From positions 1-12,317 of the forward strand of contig CAZGJX010000111.1 of the NCBI GenBank assembly GCA_964525635.1: a stretch of DNA of 12,317 bases, in the 5' to 3' direction. The translations under genes and the position numbers were made by a program. This DNA is from an uncultured archaeon (GTDB lineage: Archaea > Asgardarchaeota > Lokiarchaeia > Sigyniarchaeales > SOKP01). A model generated the notes under the pieces. That model had not been told where the DNA came from and did not search any database. It saw only the letters and a list, made by a program, of their open reading frames with translations. Positions 1,081-12,014 of the stretch are shown in pieces; the first letter of the stretch is position 1, and every line of letters starts with the position of its first letter.

Positions 1081-1449
1081 TCATTTTAAAATATCTGTTA
1101 TAATTTCTCTAAATTCTTGAACTTTAATTGGTTTAGAAATATATTTATTTATACCTGCTGCAAGGATTCTCTCTTTATCTCCTTTCATTGCAAAAGAAGT
1201 AACTGCAATTATTGGAACCATTTTGAATTTATCAATTTTTCTTAACTCTTTTGCAATATCTATTCCACTCATTTTTGGTAATTGAATGTCTAAAATAATT
1301 AAATCAGGATCTCCTGATTTTATAAGTTCTAATCCTAAATCACCCTTTGTTTCAGTAAAAATTTTAATATCAGGAATTAATTTTAAAATTGCATTAAATA
1401 ATTTCATATTTTTCTCATTATCTTCGATAACATATATATTTTTAAGCAT
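1081..1449 (-). CDS. Single-domain response regulator (CheY/DivK-like receiver)
   Basis: Acidic pocket IEDN, phosphoacceptor DLIILDIQLP, AVTSFAMKGD, YISKP; no output domain. Confidence 0.96.
   Translation of the reverse strand: MLKNIYVIEDNEKNMKLFNAILKLIPDIKIFTETKGDLGLELIKSGDPDLIILDIQLPKMSGIDIAKELRKIDKFKMVPIIAVTSFAMKGDKERILAAGINKYISKPIKVQEFREIITDILK
1301..1320. repeat. Intragenic palindrome AAATCAGGA-NN-TCCTGATTT (copy 1)
   Basis: Perfect 9-bp arms with a 2-nt spacer, inside a 29-nt block (1301-1329) identical to the reverse complement of 11769-11797. Confidence 0.6.
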
Positions 1450-2956: not shown

Positions 2957-5740
2957 CTAAATTATTACATCTAACTTTTTAGATTTCTTTGGAAGAAAAA
3001 GAGTAAAAGTACTACCAACTCCTAATACACTTGAAAAAGTTATAGTTCCATTATGTAATTCAATTAATCTTTTTGTTAAAGATAGTCCTAATCCAGTTCC
3101 AGGAGTTGATCTTACATATGTAGAATCAATTCTTGTGAAATCCTTAAAAATTAAATTAAAATCTTTATGTGCAATGCCTATTCCTGTATCTTTTACTTTA
3201 AACATCCATTTATCGAAATATTCTTTTATTGTTAAATAAATTTCACCATCAATAGTGAACTTGATAGCATTTGTTAATAAATTTAAAAGTATTTCCTTAA
3301 ATCTTATAGGATCAGCATATATTTCAATATCCTCATCTAATCCCTTTATTAGAAATAATAATTTCTTTTTTGTGTACATTGGTTTTAATGTTGAATTAAT
3401 TTGATCTAAAATAGTCTTTAAGGAAAATTTTTGTTTATTTAAGATAATTTGTCCTGATTCTAATTGAGTAATATTTAATATATTACTTATCATGTCATAC
3501 TGATGTTCTGCTGAAGTTTTAATATCTAATAAATATTCATTTTGTTCTTTATTAAGGGGTCCAAATGTTTCCTCTAATAATAATTCAGTAAATCCAATGA
3601 TTGCATTTAAAGGTGTTCGTAATTCATGGGACATGGTAGCAAGGAATTGAGATTTAAATTTAGAAACTTTAATGATTTCTGCTTGATATAAATTTTGTCT
3701 TTCAATAGATTCTTGAAGTTGTTGAGTTCTTTTACTTACTTCTTCCTCTAAACTTTGCCTAAACTCTTCTCTTAGTTTTTCTTCTTTTTTTTTTTGAGTT
3801 ATATCTCTTATTATTGACCAAAATCCAGAGATATTATTATCGATATCTGTTTTTATCCATATTTTTATATTAACTGGGATAGTATCTCCATTTTTTTTGG
3901 TTAAAACATTTTCAAATTCTTGAAAATAATTTTTGATAAATATTTCATTATTTTGAATTGACATATCAAAAATATTTATATCTGTAGAGATGATTTGATT
4001 AAAATTAATTTGTTTTAAATTATCTTTATTAAAATCCAGCATATCTAAGAATGCTTTATTAGCATCAATAAAATTACCTTCAAGATCAGTCATTGCAATT
4101 CCATCTTTACTTGATTCAAATAATCGACGATATTTTTCTTCTGATTTTTTTAATTCTTCTTCTGCTAAATTTTTATCAGTATAATCAATTAAAGTTATTA
4201 AAATTGCTTTTTTACCATGATATTGAATAGTTTTTGAATAAATATTAATCCATTTAATATTACCAGATTTAGATATGAACCTATATAAGTATGGATCATA
4301 TACTTTTAAAGAGTCTTTCATTCTTTTTTCAAATCGATCCATTGCAATAGCTCGGTCTTCAGGATGAATATTTTGAAAAAATCTATGTTTTGACCAGTTC
4401 AACATAACTTCAATTGAATATTCATTTATATCAGAAACTGCCTTATTGATATATAAGATTTTTTCATTTTGAATTATTAATGTACCCATAAAAGATTGTT
4501 CAGTTATAATTTTAAAATTTTCCTCTGATTCTTTTAATTCAGTTATATCTTGAAGCATTAATTCGATTAATTTTAAGTTTTTAAGAGAAATTATATTCAT
4601 TCGAACAAGAACATTAGCTAATGTATTATCTTTTTTATAAATCTCTGCTTCAAATGATAGTGGGATTAATTTTTCTTTTAATACTTGTATTGATTTAATA
4701 AATGTATCGAAAGACTGAGGAGAATAGAAACAGAATTCCTTGATATTTTTTCCTATTATATCATCTTCTAAATATCCAAAAGCCTTATTAAACGCAACAT
4801 TTGTTATTAAAAACTGTAAATTCATTTCCATTATAATAATTGCGATAGGGGAATCATCAAAAAAACTTTTATATAATTTTTCTGATTCATTAAACTCTCT
4901 TGTCTGCTTTAAAATAGTCTCTTCTAATCGTTTATTTAGCTTTATTAATTTTTCTTCAGATCCCTGTAATTTTTCTCTATCTTTAAAAAGTTGAGTAATA
5001 TCTCTAAATGAAGCAACCATCTCATTCTTAGAGATCTGAAATGCAATTACTTCATATGCACCCTTTATTATTTTATCATTATAATCAATTTGATCCCATT
5101 TCCAAATTCCCCCATTCTTTGCAATTTCTTTATATTTTTGAGGTACATCTGTCTTCATTAAAGGAGGAAATGCTTCCTCAATTGTCATACCTATGAATTT
5201 TGAGCAATCTACTTTAAGGATCTCATTTGCGGCTATATTTGATCCAATGAAAACCAACTTTCTATCTGGTTTTAGTGAGTATAAATGAAATCCTAAAGGA
5301 ATTGATTCACATATCTTATCTAGTTTATTTTCAGATACCTGAAGCTTTAAATTTATATTCTTCAGAAATGTTATATCTTTTGCAATGTTTAAAATTGCAT
5401 ATATTCCTTCATTATTTTTCAAGGGAATACCATAAGTATCAAGAAATACAAAATTATCATCTTTGGTTCGAATTTTGTAACTACTCAATTTTAGTTGTTT
5501 TCCATTTTCCTTAAGTGAAGATATAACTCTCAACATTTCTTCATATTGAATTTCGTCTACTAAATGTTTAAAAGAAATATTTAAGAGCTCTTCTTTAGTA
5601 TAACCAAAAATGTTTAAAGCAATTTCATTTGCATCAAGAAAAACTCCTGTTAGATCATATACATATATTAAATCTAAAGAATACTTAAATAAATATTCAA
5701 ATCTTACTCTTATATCGTCTATACTAAATTTAATATTATT
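2957..5740 (-). CDS. Soluble multi-PAS (5 PAS) sensor histidine kinase; 5' end irregular
   Basis: H box MSHELRTPLNAIIGF, N box NLLTNAIKF, G1 DTGIGI, F box, G2 GTGLGL; five PAS repeats ending in DIT/DYT. The frame stays open for 68 codons upstream of the tracked ATG 5536, up to TGA at 5741-5743, and encodes the first half of PAS1. No obvious transmembrane segment. Confidence 0.93.
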   Translation of the reverse strand, partial: NNIKFSIDDIRVRFEYLFKYSLDLIYVYDLTGVFLDANEIALNIFGYTKEELLNISFKHLVDEIQYEEMLRVISSLKENGKQLKLSSYKIRTKDDNFVFLDTYGIPLKNNEGIYAILNIAKDITFLKNINLKLQVSENKLDKICESIPLGFHLYSLKPDRKLVFIGSNIAANEILKVDCSKFIGMTIEEAFPPLMKTDVPQKYKEIAKNGGIWKWDQIDYNDKIIKGAYEVIAFQISKNEMVASFRDITQLFKDREKLQGSEEKLIKLNKRLEETILKQTREFNESEKLYKSFFDDSPIAIIIMEMNLQFLITNVAFNKAFGYLEDDIIGKNIKEFCFYSPQSFDTFIKSIQVLKEKLIPLSFEAEIYKKDNTLANVLVRMNIISLKNLKLIELMLQDITELKESEENFKIITEQSFMGTLIIQNEKILYINKAVSDINEYSIEVMLNWSKHRFFQNIHPEDRAIAMDRFEKRMKDSLKVYDPYLYRFISKSGNIKWINIYSKTIQYHGKKAILITLIDYTDKNLAEEELKKSEEKYRRLFESSKDGIAMTDLEGNFIDANKAFLDMLDFNKDNLKQINFNQIISTDINIFDMSIQNNEIFIKNYFQEFENVLTKKNGDTIPVNIKIWIKTDIDNNISGFWSIIRDITQKKKEEKLREEFRQSLEEEVSKRTQQLQESIERQNLYQAEIIKVSKFKSQFLATMSHELRTPLNAIIGFTELLLEETFGPLNKEQNEYLLDIKTSAEHQYDMISNILNITQLESGQIILNKQKFSLKTILDQINSTLKPMYTKKKLLFLIKGLDEDIEIYADPIRFKEILLNLLTNAIKFTIDGEIYLTIKEYFDKWMFKVKDTGIGIAHKDFNLIFKDFTRIDSTYVRSTPGTGLGLSLTKRLIELHNGTITFSSVLGVGSTFTLFLPKKSKKLDVII

Positions 5741-5761: not shown

Positions 5762-7993
5762 TTAATCTTTTTTTGGAATTGTAAAAAAAAATGTTGTTCC
5801 TTTTCTTTTTTCACTTTTAAACCATATTTCTCCACCATGAAGTTCCACAAGCCTTTTTGTTAATGCTAAACCGATACCAGAGCCAGATACATCTTTGGTT
5901 ATATCATTTTCAATTCTACCAAATTCTCTAAAGACAACATCATAATCATTTTTATTAATTTCTACTCCTGAATCATTGACTTGAAATTCCCAATGATCAA
6001 ATCTTTCAATACCACGAAAGCTAACTCCACCATCATTAGTAAATTTTATTGCATTATCAATTAAATTATAAAGGATCTGCCTAAATCTCATTTTATCTGC
6101 ATATATAATAGTATGTTGATTAACATTTTCTAAATTAAAATATAGTTTTTTTTTCATATATATAGGTTTAAAAATTGAATGGATTTGTTGAATTACAGGG
6201 TATAATTTAAAATTCTCTTTTTCTAATTTAAATTTAGCAATTTCTATTTTTGAGAGATCTAATATTGAATTAATTAACCCATTTAAATGTTCAGCTGCAG
6301 TATAAATATCATTCAAATAATCTTTTTGGTCATCATTCAATTCACCATATCCACCATCAATTAGTAAAGTTGAAAATCCAATAATAGCGTTCAGGGGAGT
6401 TCTTAATTCATGTGACATCGCAGCAAAAAATTTGGATTTAAACTCTAAGGATTTAATAAGTTGGTCTAGTAATTGTTCTCTATTTCTTTCATATTTTTTT
6501 CGAGAAGTAATATCTGAAATAAATGATTGAATTATAACGTTATCAGCGATTTTTAATATATTCGATGTAATTTCTACATTGATTTCTTCTCCATTTTTTT
6601 TTATAATTTTTGTTTCAATTGTATTACTTTTTGACATGACATACATATCATTATGGTAATACTTCTGCACAATTTCTATATTTTCTGGATCAAATAATTC
6701 AAATATTTTAGAATTTAGAAAGTCTTCTTCACTATAACCAAATAGGATCTTAGCTTTTTCATTGGCCCTTAGTATTTTTCCATTTTGATGAATTAAGAAA
6801 ATTGCTGAAGGTGCATGTTCAATCAATGTATTCATTTCGTGCAAAGTTTGTTCTAAGATCCTCACTTCTTGTTCAGATTGTTTAATGTCTGTAATATCTT
6901 GAATTAATAAATAAACTAATTTCTCATTATCTAATTCAATTAAAGAGAAAATCATCTTTAACCATAAATCTCTCTTATATTCTCTTTTAATATTAACAAT
7001 CATGGGATCAGGGATTTTATTTTGTTTTAATGCTCTAAAGATCATTTTAAAGAGGCTAATATATTGTTTTGGAAAAAGTATAATGTTTTCATAACTTTTA
7101 TTCATAATTTCATTTTTAGAATAACCAATTAATTTCTCCAATATAGAATTTGAATCTATGATTATACCATCCAAATTCAAGATTAAAATTGGATGAGGTG
7201 TTTTCTCAAATAATAATCGATATTTTTTTTCAGACTCCTTTAAAAGATGTTCAACTTGTTTACGTTCAGAAATATCTCGAATTGAGTAGAAAAATGCAGG
7301 ATTTCCCTCCCATTCAATTTCTACAGAAAAGAATTCAGAGACAACTGTAAGATCTTTATTTTGAGTTATTTTATATCCTTGTTTTTTCCCCATCATTATA
7401 GGAACATCAAAATATTGATTTAATAATTCATTTCTACTTTTTCTAAGATATTTTTCTGCTGCATGATTAACAAAACGTATTCTATATTCTTTATCAGTAA
7501 TAATTATGCTGTCAATAGTTTTTTCTATTATTTGTTTTAAACGTTTTTCATTGTCTTGTACTTCTTGTGCTAATAATTCAATTGTTAGCATCATATTGTG
7601 CCTAGCGATTGCAGAATATAAGACATGTTCCAAAATTTTTATATCAAATTGGTCTTCTATTAAATAATCTTGAGCACCTAATTGAATTGCATTTTGTGCT
7701 AATTGTTCATCTTCTAAGGAAACTATAAGAATTATAGGAATAGTTCTTGATTTTTTTCTAATTTTATAAAATGTTTCGAATCCATTGCTGTCAGGAAGAT
7801 ATAATCCTATAAGAAGTATATCTATTTCATTATTTATAATATATTCTGTAGCTTGTGATAGGGTTTTACATATATACGTGTCATAAATTGAATTTTCTGA
7901 AATTCCTAACAATGATTGAATAAACTCCATCTTTTCTGAATTATCGATAACTAAGAGTATTTTTAAGTTCTGTAATGACATTAATATATCCAA
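5762..7993 (-). CDS. Histidine kinase: degenerate receiver + 3 PAS + HisKA + HATPase_c
   Basis: N-terminal receiver fold (ILLVID...LYLPDSNG...GAQDYL), three PAS repeats ending in DIS/DIT, H box MSHELRTPLNAIIGF, N box NLIDNAIKF, G2 GSGIGL. Start is TTG 7993 or ATG 7981. Confidence 0.94.
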   Translation of the reverse strand: MDILMSLQNLKILLVIDNSEKMEFIQSLLGISENSIYDTYICKTLSQATEYIINNEIDILLIGLYLPDSNGFETFYKIRKKSRTIPIILIVSLEDEQLAQNAIQLGAQDYLIEDQFDIKILEHVLYSAIARHNMMLTIELLAQEVQDNEKRLKQIIEKTIDSIIITDKEYRIRFVNHAAEKYLRKSRNELLNQYFDVPIMMGKKQGYKITQNKDLTVVSEFFSVEIEWEGNPAFFYSIRDISERKQVEHLLKESEKKYRLLFEKTPHPILILNLDGIIIDSNSILEKLIGYSKNEIMNKSYENIILFPKQYISLFKMIFRALKQNKIPDPMIVNIKREYKRDLWLKMIFSLIELDNEKLVYLLIQDITDIKQSEQEVRILEQTLHEMNTLIEHAPSAIFLIHQNGKILRANEKAKILFGYSEEDFLNSKIFELFDPENIEIVQKYYHNDMYVMSKSNTIETKIIKKNGEEINVEITSNILKIADNVIIQSFISDITSRKKYERNREQLLDQLIKSLEFKSKFFAAMSHELRTPLNAIIGFSTLLIDGGYGELNDDQKDYLNDIYTAAEHLNGLINSILDLSKIEIAKFKLEKENFKLYPVIQQIHSIFKPIYMKKKLYFNLENVNQHTIIYADKMRFRQILYNLIDNAIKFTNDGGVSFRGIERFDHWEFQVNDSGVEINKNDYDVVFREFGRIENDITKDVSGSGIGLALTKRLVELHGGEIWFKSEKRKGTTFFFTIPKKD

Positions 7994-8160: not shown

Positions 8161-9054
8161 TTAATCCAAATTTAAATGAATTTCATTTAAATTAAGGAAA
8201 GTATAAAATAATTCAATTCCTTTATCCTCTTTATTTAATTCTGCTTTATTGATTTCTTTTTTTAATCCTGTTTTTAAATATTCACATCTTTGAGTTAATC
8301 TAATAAAATTCTTAAAAGATAAATATTCAATCATTCCTAATTTTTCCAATCTTTCTAAATGGTAATTCAATTTATTAATATCTAAATTGAATTTATATGA
8401 TAAATGTTCTACTTTATATTTTACATATAGCTCACATTTAATAATTATAATAATTTCTTGTTTTAAGTCTTCAAATTCTGTTTTACTTATTGGAATAAAA
8501 TCTTCTTGATAGATTGAATTTATTATATCTAAAAAAATTTGAAATGTATTGTAGAAATATTCTCTTGTAATAGATGTTCCAAATATCTTTATACTAATAC
8601 CATTATTTGTATAATTACTTTTTAGGTAATTCTTAATTATTTTAATTTTTTCAGATAAATAAGAAGATTTGACCGTGTCAATTTTATGAAGAAATATAAT
8701 TATCTTACAATTTAAAAGAGAATTTAATTCTTTTTTAATTTTTATTATCTTTACTAAAAAGGAGATAATTTTTTCTGATGAATTATTTATATCAAAAACA
8801 CAAGTTATCACATGAGATTGATCAAATACATCTCTATCTTTTAAGAACCAATTTTTATTTTCTTGACCAGCTAAATCAAAAATTCCTAATTGAGAATTGA
8901 ATAGTAAAAAAATATTTGAATTTACTCCTCTTGTAGGTTCTAAAGAGGTATCTAATAATTTAATTGGATTTGCTTTCTGAAAAAATACTTTAGTAATTGT
9001 AGTTTTGCCAGTTGCAGGGGGTCCTATGAGTATAATTTTCTTTTTGTTTGCCAT
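8161..9054 (-). CDS. Rag/Arf-related small GTPase with C-terminal winged helix-turn-helix-like domain
   Basis: G1 GPPATGKTT, EPTRG, FDLAGQ, HKID, TSI. C-terminal VEHLSYKFNLDINKLNYHLERLEKLGMIEY...IRLT matches the ArsR/MarR/TrmB-type wHTH pattern. Confidence 0.88.
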   Translation of the reverse strand: MANKKKIILIGPPATGKTTITKVFFQKANPIKLLDTSLEPTRGVNSNIFLLFNSQLGIFDLAGQENKNWFLKDRDVFDQSHVITCVFDINNSSEKIISFLVKIIKIKKELNSLLNCKIIIFLHKIDTVKSSYLSEKIKIIKNYLKSNYTNNGISIKIFGTSITREYFYNTFQIFLDIINSIYQEDFIPISKTEFEDLKQEIIIIIKCELYVKYKVEHLSYKFNLDINKLNYHLERLEKLGMIEYLSFKNFIRLTQRCEYLKTGLKKEINKAELNKEDKGIELFYTFLNLNEIHLNLD

Positions 9055-9091: not shown

Positions 9092-9772
9092 TTAACTACC
9101 TTGCAAAGAATTATGTAAATTCTTCTCAATAGTTTCAATGATATCATCACATGAATCAAGCATTATTTCAACATATTTAATAATGAGATCTTCAGATAAT
9201 TTTCCAGTTTTACTTTTTTCTTCTAAAATTAATTCACAAAATCCACGAATTGTATTAATTTCGCTCCTAATCTCCAGATTTGCAGATTCTAAAGGAATTA
9301 TTTCATTTTTGTCTAAATAAATTTTTTGAATTTCAATGAAGAAATTTTTAAAAATTGAATTATCATCCGTTAAAATGTTCTTTTCTCCCATTTTTCTGAA
9401 TAATGTTTCTATTCTCTGAAAATATATCGTAGGAATTAATGGATAATCAACATGCCTCAATATTATTATTGCATATAATTGTTTTTTACCTCGAGCAGCT
9501 TCATCTTTTATGTCTACTTTACATATCTGAGAATAAAACTTATCATAATTTAAAATAACAAATTTATTTTTTGTGTTTAAAGCATCTCTGAGTAAATTTC
9601 TTATAAATTGATCATCATCAATTTTTACAGGGGAAAAAATAGCTATGGGTCCTAATATATGGTCATATTTTCCAATTATTATAATAAAAGGATATTGTTC
9701 AATATAATCTTTAAATCCATTGTATGGATACATATAACTTTCCAAATTTTTTTTATTTAATTGATTTTCCAT
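9092..9772 (-). CDS. Putative folliculin/SMCR8-like longin (uDENN) domain fused to a His-less HisKA/DHp-like domain
   Basis: ATG 9772 (MENQLNKK) preferred over TTG 9835. Motifs FIIIIGKYDHILGPIAIFSP and IKDEAARGKKQLYAIIIL; the C-terminus ANLEIRSEINTIRGFCELILEE aligns with the neighbouring kinase H box MSHELRTPLNAIIGFTELLLEE. The CDS itself is secure; the domain calls are by eye. Confidence 0.72.
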   Translation of the reverse strand: MENQLNKKNLESYMYPYNGFKDYIEQYPFIIIIGKYDHILGPIAIFSPVKIDDDQFIRNLLRDALNTKNKFVILNYDKFYSQICKVDIKDEAARGKKQLYAIIILRHVDYPLIPTIYFQRIETLFRKMGEKNILTDDNSIFKNFFIEIQKIYLDKNEIIPLESANLEIRSEINTIRGFCELILEEKSKTGKLSEDLIIKYVEIMLDSCDDIIETIEKNLHNSLQGS

Positions 9773-11651: not shown

Positions 11652-12014
11652 ATGAAGAATGTATATATAGTTGAAGATGATTCAAAAAACATGAAATTAT
11701 ATAAGGCGATTTTAGGGCAATTTCCAGATCTAAAAATTTTTGAAGAAGTTGAAGGAGATTTAGGACTTGAACTTATAAAATCAGGAGATCCTGATTTGAT
11801 TATTTTAGATATTAGATTACCAAAAATGACCGGAATAGAAATTTGTCAGGAGTTAAGGAAGATTGAAAGGTTTAAAGATGTACCAATTATTGCTGTTACT
11901 GCATATGCTATGAAAGGTGATGAAGAACGCATTTTAGAAGCAGGATTTGATGCTTATATTACGAAACCAATTCGTGTTTTGGAATTTAAAAACAAAATTA
12001 AACATTATCTTTAG
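11652..12014 (+). CDS. Single-domain response regulator (CheY/DivK-like receiver), paralog of 1081-1449
   Basis: VEDD, DLIILDIRLP, AVTAYAMKGD, YITKP; about 81 of 119 aligned residues identical to the other receiver by manual count. Confidence 0.96.
   Translation: MKNVYIVEDDSKNMKLYKAILGQFPDLKIFEEVEGDLGLELIKSGDPDLIILDIRLPKMTGIEICQELRKIERFKDVPIIAVTAYAMKGDEERILEAGFDAYITKPIRVLEFKNKIKHYL
11778..11797. repeat. Intragenic palindrome AAATCAGGA-NN-TCCTGATTT (copy 2)
   Basis: Same palindrome at the equivalent codons (KSGDPDL) of the second receiver gene. Confidence 0.6.

Follow-up and report, generated by a model that had tools for sequence, protein, structure and literature searches.

Asgard archaea encode dozens of Rag/Arf-like GTPases together with longin or roadblock proteins; to our knowledge, neither an input signal nor a regulator-GTPase pair has been established for them. 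In the accessible text of a 2020 preprint, Liu et al. (bioRxiv 10.1101/2020.10.19.343400) report Asgard NPRL2-like longin proteins fused to two-component domains (their Fig. 5c) and suggest that growth regulation in Asgard archaea stays centered on two-component systems with 'eukaryotic' regulators. The Asgard GTPase, roadblock and longin literature that was otherwise compared makes no mention of two-component links, and literature searches for an Asgard longin with a histidine kinase, or for 'Roadblock-Longin', returned no match. The Caulobacter pseudo-histidine kinase DivL reads DivK~P and signals to another kinase, CckA (PMC4211667). In the MglA-MglB-RomR/FrzX polarity module of Myxococcus, the regulators of a small GTPase include kinase-fed receiver-domain proteins (PMC9481161, PMC13408092).

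Here we describe a 226-aa protein that, like the proteins of the class of Liu et al., combines an NPRL2-like longin domain and a two-component-type domain in one Asgard polypeptide. The class of longin/two-component fusions is already published, and the family described here, with its His-less and CA-less hairpin, is a variant within it. A preliminary description of the locus, in which no longin-DHp fusion was said to have been described, has to be corrected on this point in view of what the accessible part of the preprint reports.

Genes of the contig and the longin-hairpin family

The window, i.e., the whole stretch of DNA that was analyzed (12.3 kb), is an entire contig of a 4.45-Mb genome of a Loki-type Asgard archaeon. 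ORF and Pfam analyses assigned signaling roles to all ten credible genes of the contig, which include those of four Gtr1/RagA-Arf-like GTPases, two PAS-HisKA-HATPase_c kinases, two single-domain receivers and the 226-aa longin-hairpin protein. The relevant features are as follows.

9092-9772, minus strand: longin-hairpin gene, 226 aa from the ATG at 9772, stop codon at 9092-9094
9835, minus strand: alternative TTG start upstream in the longin-hairpin gene, giving 247 aa if used
9365-9694, minus strand: longin domain of the FLCN/NPRL2 type, residues ~27-136 (AF2, Foldseek, weak Pfam Folliculin match, invariant columns)
9314-9361, minus strand: helix connecting the longin domain to the hairpin, residues 138-153 (AF2 secondary structure)
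9206-9310, minus strand: DHp-like helix 1 with a degenerate H-box, residues 155-189 (BLASTP, hhalign, AF2)
9275-9277, minus strand: Leu166 (CTG) at the position of the phospho-acceptor His (BLASTP and hhalign register)
9236-9238, minus strand: invariant Cys179 in helix 1, which pairs with invariant Cys208 in helix 2 (9149-9151)
9104-9193, minus strand: DHp-like helix 2, residues 194-223 (hhalign, AF2)
8161-9054, minus strand: Gtr1/RagA-like GTPase with a C-terminal winged-helix region (Pfam), 37 nt 3′ of the longin-hairpin gene
5762-7993, minus strand: REC-PAS-HisKA-HATPase_c hybrid kinase (Pfam), downstream of the GTPase gene at 8161-9054
2957-5536, minus strand: PAS-HisKA-HATPase_c kinase (Pfam), source of the H-box in the alignment of the preliminary description
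1081-1449, minus strand: second single-domain receiver, 68% identical to the receiver at 11652-12014
11652-12014, plus strand: DivK-like single-domain receiver (Pfam Response_reg), the partner in the complex prediction

The two receivers belong to a very conserved Lokiarchaeial family that carries a DivK label in several public sources and whose members are often found on the same contigs as the longin-hairpin gene. The kinase gene at 2957-5536 is the longest ORF starting with ATG (859 aa) for that protein; its reading frame is still open upstream of the ATG at 5536, and a six-frame search gave a 927-aa open frame around HisKA (2957-5740).

The AF2 model of the N-terminal domain shows a beta-beta-alpha-beta-beta-beta-alpha order. 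Foldseek matched it with a probability of 1.00 to the longin domains of GATOR1, the FLCN complex, Lst4, DENND10, Sec22b and a Lokiarchaeal longin, with TM scores of 0.3 to 0.4 calculated over the whole query, and the 226-aa protein has a weak match to Pfam Folliculin. The G41-P42 pair (9647-9652) and the R94-G95 pair (Arg codon at 9491-9493) are invariant in 30 sequences. The GP motif and conserved Arg described for Asgard longins in the accessible part of a recent report (Traffic 2025, PMC12290439) are the same motif as that of the 226-aa protein. In eukaryotes, longin domains of this kind switch Rag GTPases off. Arg94 is a candidate arginine finger, and we infer that the protein may have GAP activity on a Rag-like GTPase. 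The GTPase encoded at 8161-9054 is the likely partner of the longin domain.

We identified 215 homologues, nearly all of 205 to 242 aa, with query coverages of 86 to 100%. Among 400 genomes of the phylum, full-length members were found only in the Lokiarchaeial order of the source genome, usually as one copy per genome. The fusion is thus kept across that order, so that a lack of conservation in homologues, given in the preliminary description as a ground for refutation, does not apply. No longer form with a catalytic domain was detected among 1.84 billion representatives, and the only larger architectures are two PAS-longin-hairpin proteins, P0133 and P0134.

These PAS-fused relatives are 388 to 391 aa long, with the PAS domain at the N terminus, before the longin-hairpin unit (P0133 at L025:7535-8701; L067, G145:C258). 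The neighbors of one of them are a gene for a Rag-like GTPase and a type III CRISPR-Cas (Cmr) cluster. In P0133 and P0134, a possible additional stretch resembling an H-box, located N-terminal to the longin domain, was considered and discarded, as it has no Pfam support.

The gene context is also conserved. In 19 of 29 other species representatives, the next gene 3′ on that strand is an orthologue of the winged-helix GTPase gene, and PAS-HisKA kinases or receivers are encoded within a few kb at six of seven wider loci, including those of relatives with 31 to 36% identity; the seventh (L025), that of a PAS-fused relative, has the adjacent GTPase gene only. At the locus of a 36%-identical relative (L023:10001-12142), genes for the longin-hairpin protein, a 294-aa Gtr1/RagA GTPase and a 168-aa receiver follow one another on one strand with gaps of less than 25 nt. 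This gene order is the tightest evidence for joint action of the three proteins.

A degenerate HisKA/DHp hairpin at the C terminus

The analyses confirmed that the 226-aa protein ends in a genuine, though degenerate, HisKA/DHp hairpin of ~70 residues (9092-9299), and that this region descends from the HisKA/DHp domain of a histidine kinase is very probable. The alignment to a neighboring kinase given in the preliminary description could be reproduced: in a BLASTP comparison of the C-terminal 78 residues with the kinase at 2957-5536, the sole clear match is the H-box, where 12 of 25 residues are identical; the E value of 4e-5 applies to this single pairwise comparison. The kinase at 5762-7993 gave a weaker match (E 0.005) in the same register. 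Similarity to the Pfam HisKA profile (PF00512) was seen as well, though it is sub-threshold: against a gathering cut-off of 26.9 bits, the whole protein scored 14.3 bits and the isolated C terminus 17.4 bits. HisKA is the commonest weak Pfam match in the family (24 of 30 members).

Similarity to DHp domains was also found at the level of profiles. Comparison of the family C terminus with the 17 DHp domains of the same genome by hhalign gave a probability of 89.5% and an E value of 2e-6 over 53 columns covering both helices. An HMM of these 17 domains scored 17.1 bits on the C terminus, which was attained by 1 of 20,000 shuffled sequences, and yielded 11 to 21 bits for each of the 30 family members tested. 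In the 400 genomes of the phylum, the whole-family profile matched the HisKA region of true PAS-GAF-HisKA-HATPase_c kinases, with an E value of 5e-6 per genome. An exhaustive phmmer search of the 1.84 billion representatives returned only 26 relatives. One of them, P0145 (E 2.3e-5, six matched stretches), contains six tandem HisKA domains according to Pfam (E 1.6e-37), providing a transitive link to DHp. In contrast to these results, an hmmsearch of PDB sequences with the C-terminal family profile retrieved no kinase, the best matches (E 0.19) being unrelated coiled coils. In the ESM Atlas, HisKA appears in 27 of 30 named look-alike clusters, which we take as a lead only.

P0145 itself (L026:2277-3947) is a 556-aa protein with a Gly/Ala-rich N terminus, encoded on an unrelated metagenome contig. 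Phe replaces the phospho-His in all six of its HisKA repeats and it has no ATPase domain, so that it is a multi-DHp pseudo-kinase.

AF2 predicted an antiparallel two-helix hairpin (helices 155-189 and 194-223) with a pLDDT of 85 for the domain alone, and the full-length model resembles LOV-kinase chimeras, in which a sensor domain is followed by a helix and then the DHp. When Foldseek was run with the hairpin alone, kinase DHp domains (HK853, SrrB, KinB and others; rmsd 1.9 to 3.9 Å) made up many of the natural proteins in the top 50 rows. No row had a significant E value, which is usual with a fold of this size, and hairpins designed de novo ranked among the kinases; the fold search was therefore used as a consistency check only. 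As similarity to DHp is seen in profiles and in fold, its absence, another ground for refutation in the preliminary description, does not apply either.

The sub-threshold Pfam scores and this mixture of kinases and designed hairpins are what might be seen if the resemblance to DHp resulted from chance or composition, the hairpin being a generic amphipathic coiled coil in an AT-rich genome. However, BLASTP, phmmer, hhalign, the family profile and the HMM of the genome's own DHp domains all give the same register, and divergent members keep a His at the same column. The profile and transitive evidence already contradicts a chance origin, which we regard as extremely unlikely.

No ATPase domain follows the hairpin, in line with the preliminary description. 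The ORF ends at the stop codon 9092-9094 and the next one, 37 nt further on, encodes the Gtr1/RagA-type GTPase, which leaves no HATPase_c domain after the hairpin. Pfam detected neither PAS nor CA domains in the 226-aa protein.

Loss of the histidine and predicted docking of receivers

The substitutions reported earlier were both found: the CTG codon at 9275-9277 places a Leu at the His column in the BLASTP and hhalign alignments, and the Pro that follows the H-box is lost, with Glu in its place in the 226-aa protein. The motif is present in 119 close homologues; at the His column, 105 of them have Leu, 13 have Met and 1 has Ile. Leu, Met, Ile or Val is present in that column in 38 of 39 sequences of species representatives and relatives, and in all orthologues examined. 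No His was found at or near the site in the clade of the 226-aa protein. Nevertheless, the divergent relatives P0129, P0131 and P0143 and the fragment P0142 retain a His in exactly that column, preceded in P0129 and P0131 by the canonical Ser; among other divergent relatives, P0128 has Lys and P0144 has Tyr, as in DivL. One genome (G282) has both a Leu-type and a His-type copy (L065, G282:C133; L066, G282:C241), and a word-index search for further His-bearing members with P0131 found only P0131 itself. Such a pattern would be expected of a domain that descends from a working phospho-acceptor. The tree available to trace the loss of His has 31 rows, long branches and a midpoint root only; its His rows lie in two places (two changes), and the order of the changes thus cannot be polarized.

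The genes of the His-type proteins P0129 and P0131 (L022:1911-2528; L024:10001-10585) lie between those of REC-PAS-HisKA kinases and several single-domain receivers. These two proteins might still relay phosphate.

Next to the lost His, the flank has drifted relative to that of kinases, from Glu/Asp to mostly Gln at +1, from Thr to Ser at +4 and from Pro to Gly at +5, counted from the His position. No variation was seen in the Arg at +3 or in the Asn-Thr-Ile-x-Gly-Phe stretch.

The preliminary description proposed that the domain binds the phosphorylated DivK-like receivers, or heterodimerizes with the kinases, and so gates GAP activity. Of this proposal, binding of the DivK-like receivers is supported in silico by a complex prediction with two copies of the hairpin and the receiver at 11652-12014, which scored 0.73, compared with 0.12 for the best of three controls. 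In the calibration of the method, 58 of 80 solved complexes attained the mark used for docking, as did 2 of 110 mismatched pairs. Unlike the calibration, our run comprised three chains; it was supplied with our own alignments and contained no phosphoryl group. At least 96% of contacts are common to the runs, and the pLDDT of the partner is 87 or more. Both copies of the hairpin contact the receiver in the three-chain model, and the score covers the partner, i.e., the receiver, only. On the receiver, the contacts involve helix 1 (residues 10-20), the loop after Asp53 and the beta4-alpha4 and beta5-alpha5 loops. On the hairpin, they span positions −1 to +18, counted from the former His (helix-1 residues 165-184), and also take in the beginning of helix 2 and two residues that belong to the second protomer; the tightest predicted pairs are at +7, +8, +11, +12 and +15.

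The predicted docking has the canonical kinase-receiver geometry. As kinase-receiver complexes of the HK853-RR468 type are already solved, the score may reflect recall rather than binding. Conservation provides another view of the same face: 14 of the 21 predicted contact positions are conserved at 90% or more, versus 10 of the 59 others (Fisher p 5e-5), indicating that selection continues to act on this face although it has lost its part in catalysis. It could be, however, that the H-box flank is conserved for packing of the bundle and not for docking. We put the docking of the cluster receivers by the hairpin at an even chance or slightly above.

A rival hypothesis is that the DHp-derived hairpin is nothing but a homodimerization element, giving a longin dimer like those of FLCN-FNIP or NPRL2-NPRL3, with no two-component partner and a gene neighborhood that reflects shared regulation only. 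DHp domains are dimerization modules by definition, and eukaryotic GAP longins act as longin pairs. The two Cys residues, 179 and 208, which are invariant in the family, also fit this hypothesis, because in the hhalign register they occupy sites where canonical DHp domains have the small residues Ser, Thr or Ala. However, the exposed flank residues Arg169, Asn173, Thr174 and Gly177 are invariant across the order despite the loss of His, conserved positions are enriched on the predicted receiver face, and the complex prediction passes. We thus consider a role in dimerization alone unlikely.

Cys179 and Cys208 might form a redox or metal site where the protomers of the dimer meet. The three-chain model has the second protomer's Cys208 in contact with the receiver.

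The hairpin might alternatively be a dedicated phosphatase of the phosphorylated receivers. For some HisKA kinases, dephosphorylation of receivers does not require the His, and the HisKA phosphatase motif is E/D-x-x-T/N. The canonical docking geometry of the model would suit such an activity, as would the invariant Arg at +3, the nearly invariant Ser at +4 and the Glu found at +1 in the clade of the 226-aa protein. Family-wide, however, the residue at +1 is Gln or Lys in 109 of 119 members, and that at +4 is Ser, not Thr or Asn, in 117 of 119. As the acidic residue at +1 is not conserved, the phosphatase hypothesis is weakened, and we give it little credence.

In another scenario, the hairpin would form mixed four-helix bundles with the DHp domains of the neighboring PAS kinases, in a RetS-GacS-like manner, and would thereby tether the longin-GTPase pair to a kinase or inhibit the kinase. 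It is in keeping with this scenario that the best pairwise match of the hairpin is the H-box of the neighboring kinase itself and that kinase genes are conserved neighbors. Outside the H-box, in contrast, identity to the DHp domains of these kinases is low, and the longin-hairpin orthologues are much more alike among themselves than the flanking kinases are. We regard mixed bundles as improbable, if slightly less so than a phosphatase.

Proposed adaptor function and comparison with known systems

The hairpin has Leu166 instead of the His and is not followed by an ATPase domain, and it can therefore neither autophosphorylate nor transfer phosphate. With phosphotransfer impossible, dimerization and receiver docking are still open to a DHp domain, and we therefore favor a dimeric adaptor. 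On balance, we consider it slightly more likely than not that the 226-aa protein is a DHp-derived dimeric adaptor that docks DivK-like receivers and so links the longin domain and its GTPase to the PAS kinases. The hairpin would dimerize into a four-helix bundle and keep a receiver-docking face, to which helix 1 just below the former His and the beginning of helix 2 contribute and where the cluster's DivK-like single-domain receivers would bind. Their docking would place the longin domain, with its GP motif and Arg94, and the co-operonic Rag-like GTPase under the PAS sensor kinases.

That the action of the longin domain on the GTPase depends on the receivers is a further step, possible but doubtful. 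In a still more extended scenario, the His-less DHp would read the phosphorylation state of the receiver and thereby make an FLCN/NPRL2-type longin GAP (or GEF) for a Rag-like DNA-binding GTPase dependent on the PAS kinases. The system would then be an archaeal forerunner of Rag/GATOR/folliculin nutrient signaling with two-component input, and the His-bearing paralogues would survive from an ancestral longin-phosphotransferase. We regard this scenario as speculative and rather unlikely.

If the hairpin does dock the nearby receivers, it constitutes a testable link between Rag-type and two-component signaling. The longin-hairpin protein, the co-operonic winged-helix GTPase, the DivK-like receivers and the PAS kinases form a compact, soluble set, conserved across the order, that can be reconstituted directly. 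This set bears on whether a prokaryotic phosphorelay once drove eukaryote-type GTPase regulation, as Liu et al. proposed in general terms in the accessible part of their preprint. A DHp adaptor devoid of both CA domain and His would in addition join the short list of pseudo-kinase modules.

Comparison with described systems places the protein closest to the class of Liu et al. and to the Asgard longins with GP motif and arginine finger (PMC12290439). As far as the accessible texts go, the common features are a longin domain of the NPRL2/FLCN type that has the GP motif and the conserved Arg, its fusion to a domain of two-component type and the occurrence in Loki-type Asgard archaea; the link proposed from two-component signaling to Rag-type regulation is the same. 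The accessible texts of Liu et al. and of PMC12290439 do not contain the 226-aa family, a His-less and CA-less DHp, the His-bearing paralogues, the pairing with a winged-helix GTPase or the docking model.

The analogy with DivL drawn in the preliminary description is a functional one only. In both proteins the DHp domain lacks the phospho-acceptor His, and the single-domain DivK-like receiver that it is proposed to bind would be an input, not a substrate. The analogy remains loose, since DivL has retained the CA domain and carries Tyr in place of the His; it also keeps PAS domains, and its output is CckA. The 226-aa protein, in contrast, has Leu at that position and no CA domain, and its likely output is the longin domain.

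Spo0B and ChpT are DHp-based phosphotransferases without kinase activity. With the 226-aa protein they share the lack of autophosphorylation and, if the adaptor model is right, the DHp four-helix bundle and the docking of receivers. They relay phosphate, however, and have retained both the His and a CA-like domain; only the divergent His-bearing P0129, P0131 and P0143 could act in their manner.

The geometry of the hairpin resembles that in complexes of the HK853-RR468 type (PDB 3DGE, 4JAU, 4JAV, 6RH8), with an rmsd of ~2.5 Å over 70 columns, and the predicted contact offsets include those of HK853 A268, A271 and T275 relative to H260, residues that appear in the titles of PDB 4JAU and 6RH8. 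Identity is only 16 to 17%, however, and the 226-aa protein, with neither His nor CA domain, can perform no phosphotransfer.

The MglA-MglB-RomR/FrzX module joins a prokaryotic small GTPase to receiver-domain regulators in a kinase pathway. It does so with a roadblock GAP and a receiver-domain scaffold, and has neither a longin domain nor a DHp-derived adaptor. Finally, FLCN-FNIP2, GATOR1 (NPRL2-NPRL3) and C9orf72-SMCR8 have the longin fold, the conserved Arg and the GP motif in common with the 226-aa protein, beside which a Rag-like GTPase is encoded. In these eukaryotic complexes, DENN or NPRL-specific domains accompany the longin domain, as does a second longin subunit, whereas dimerization of the 226-aa protein would come from its DHp hairpin.
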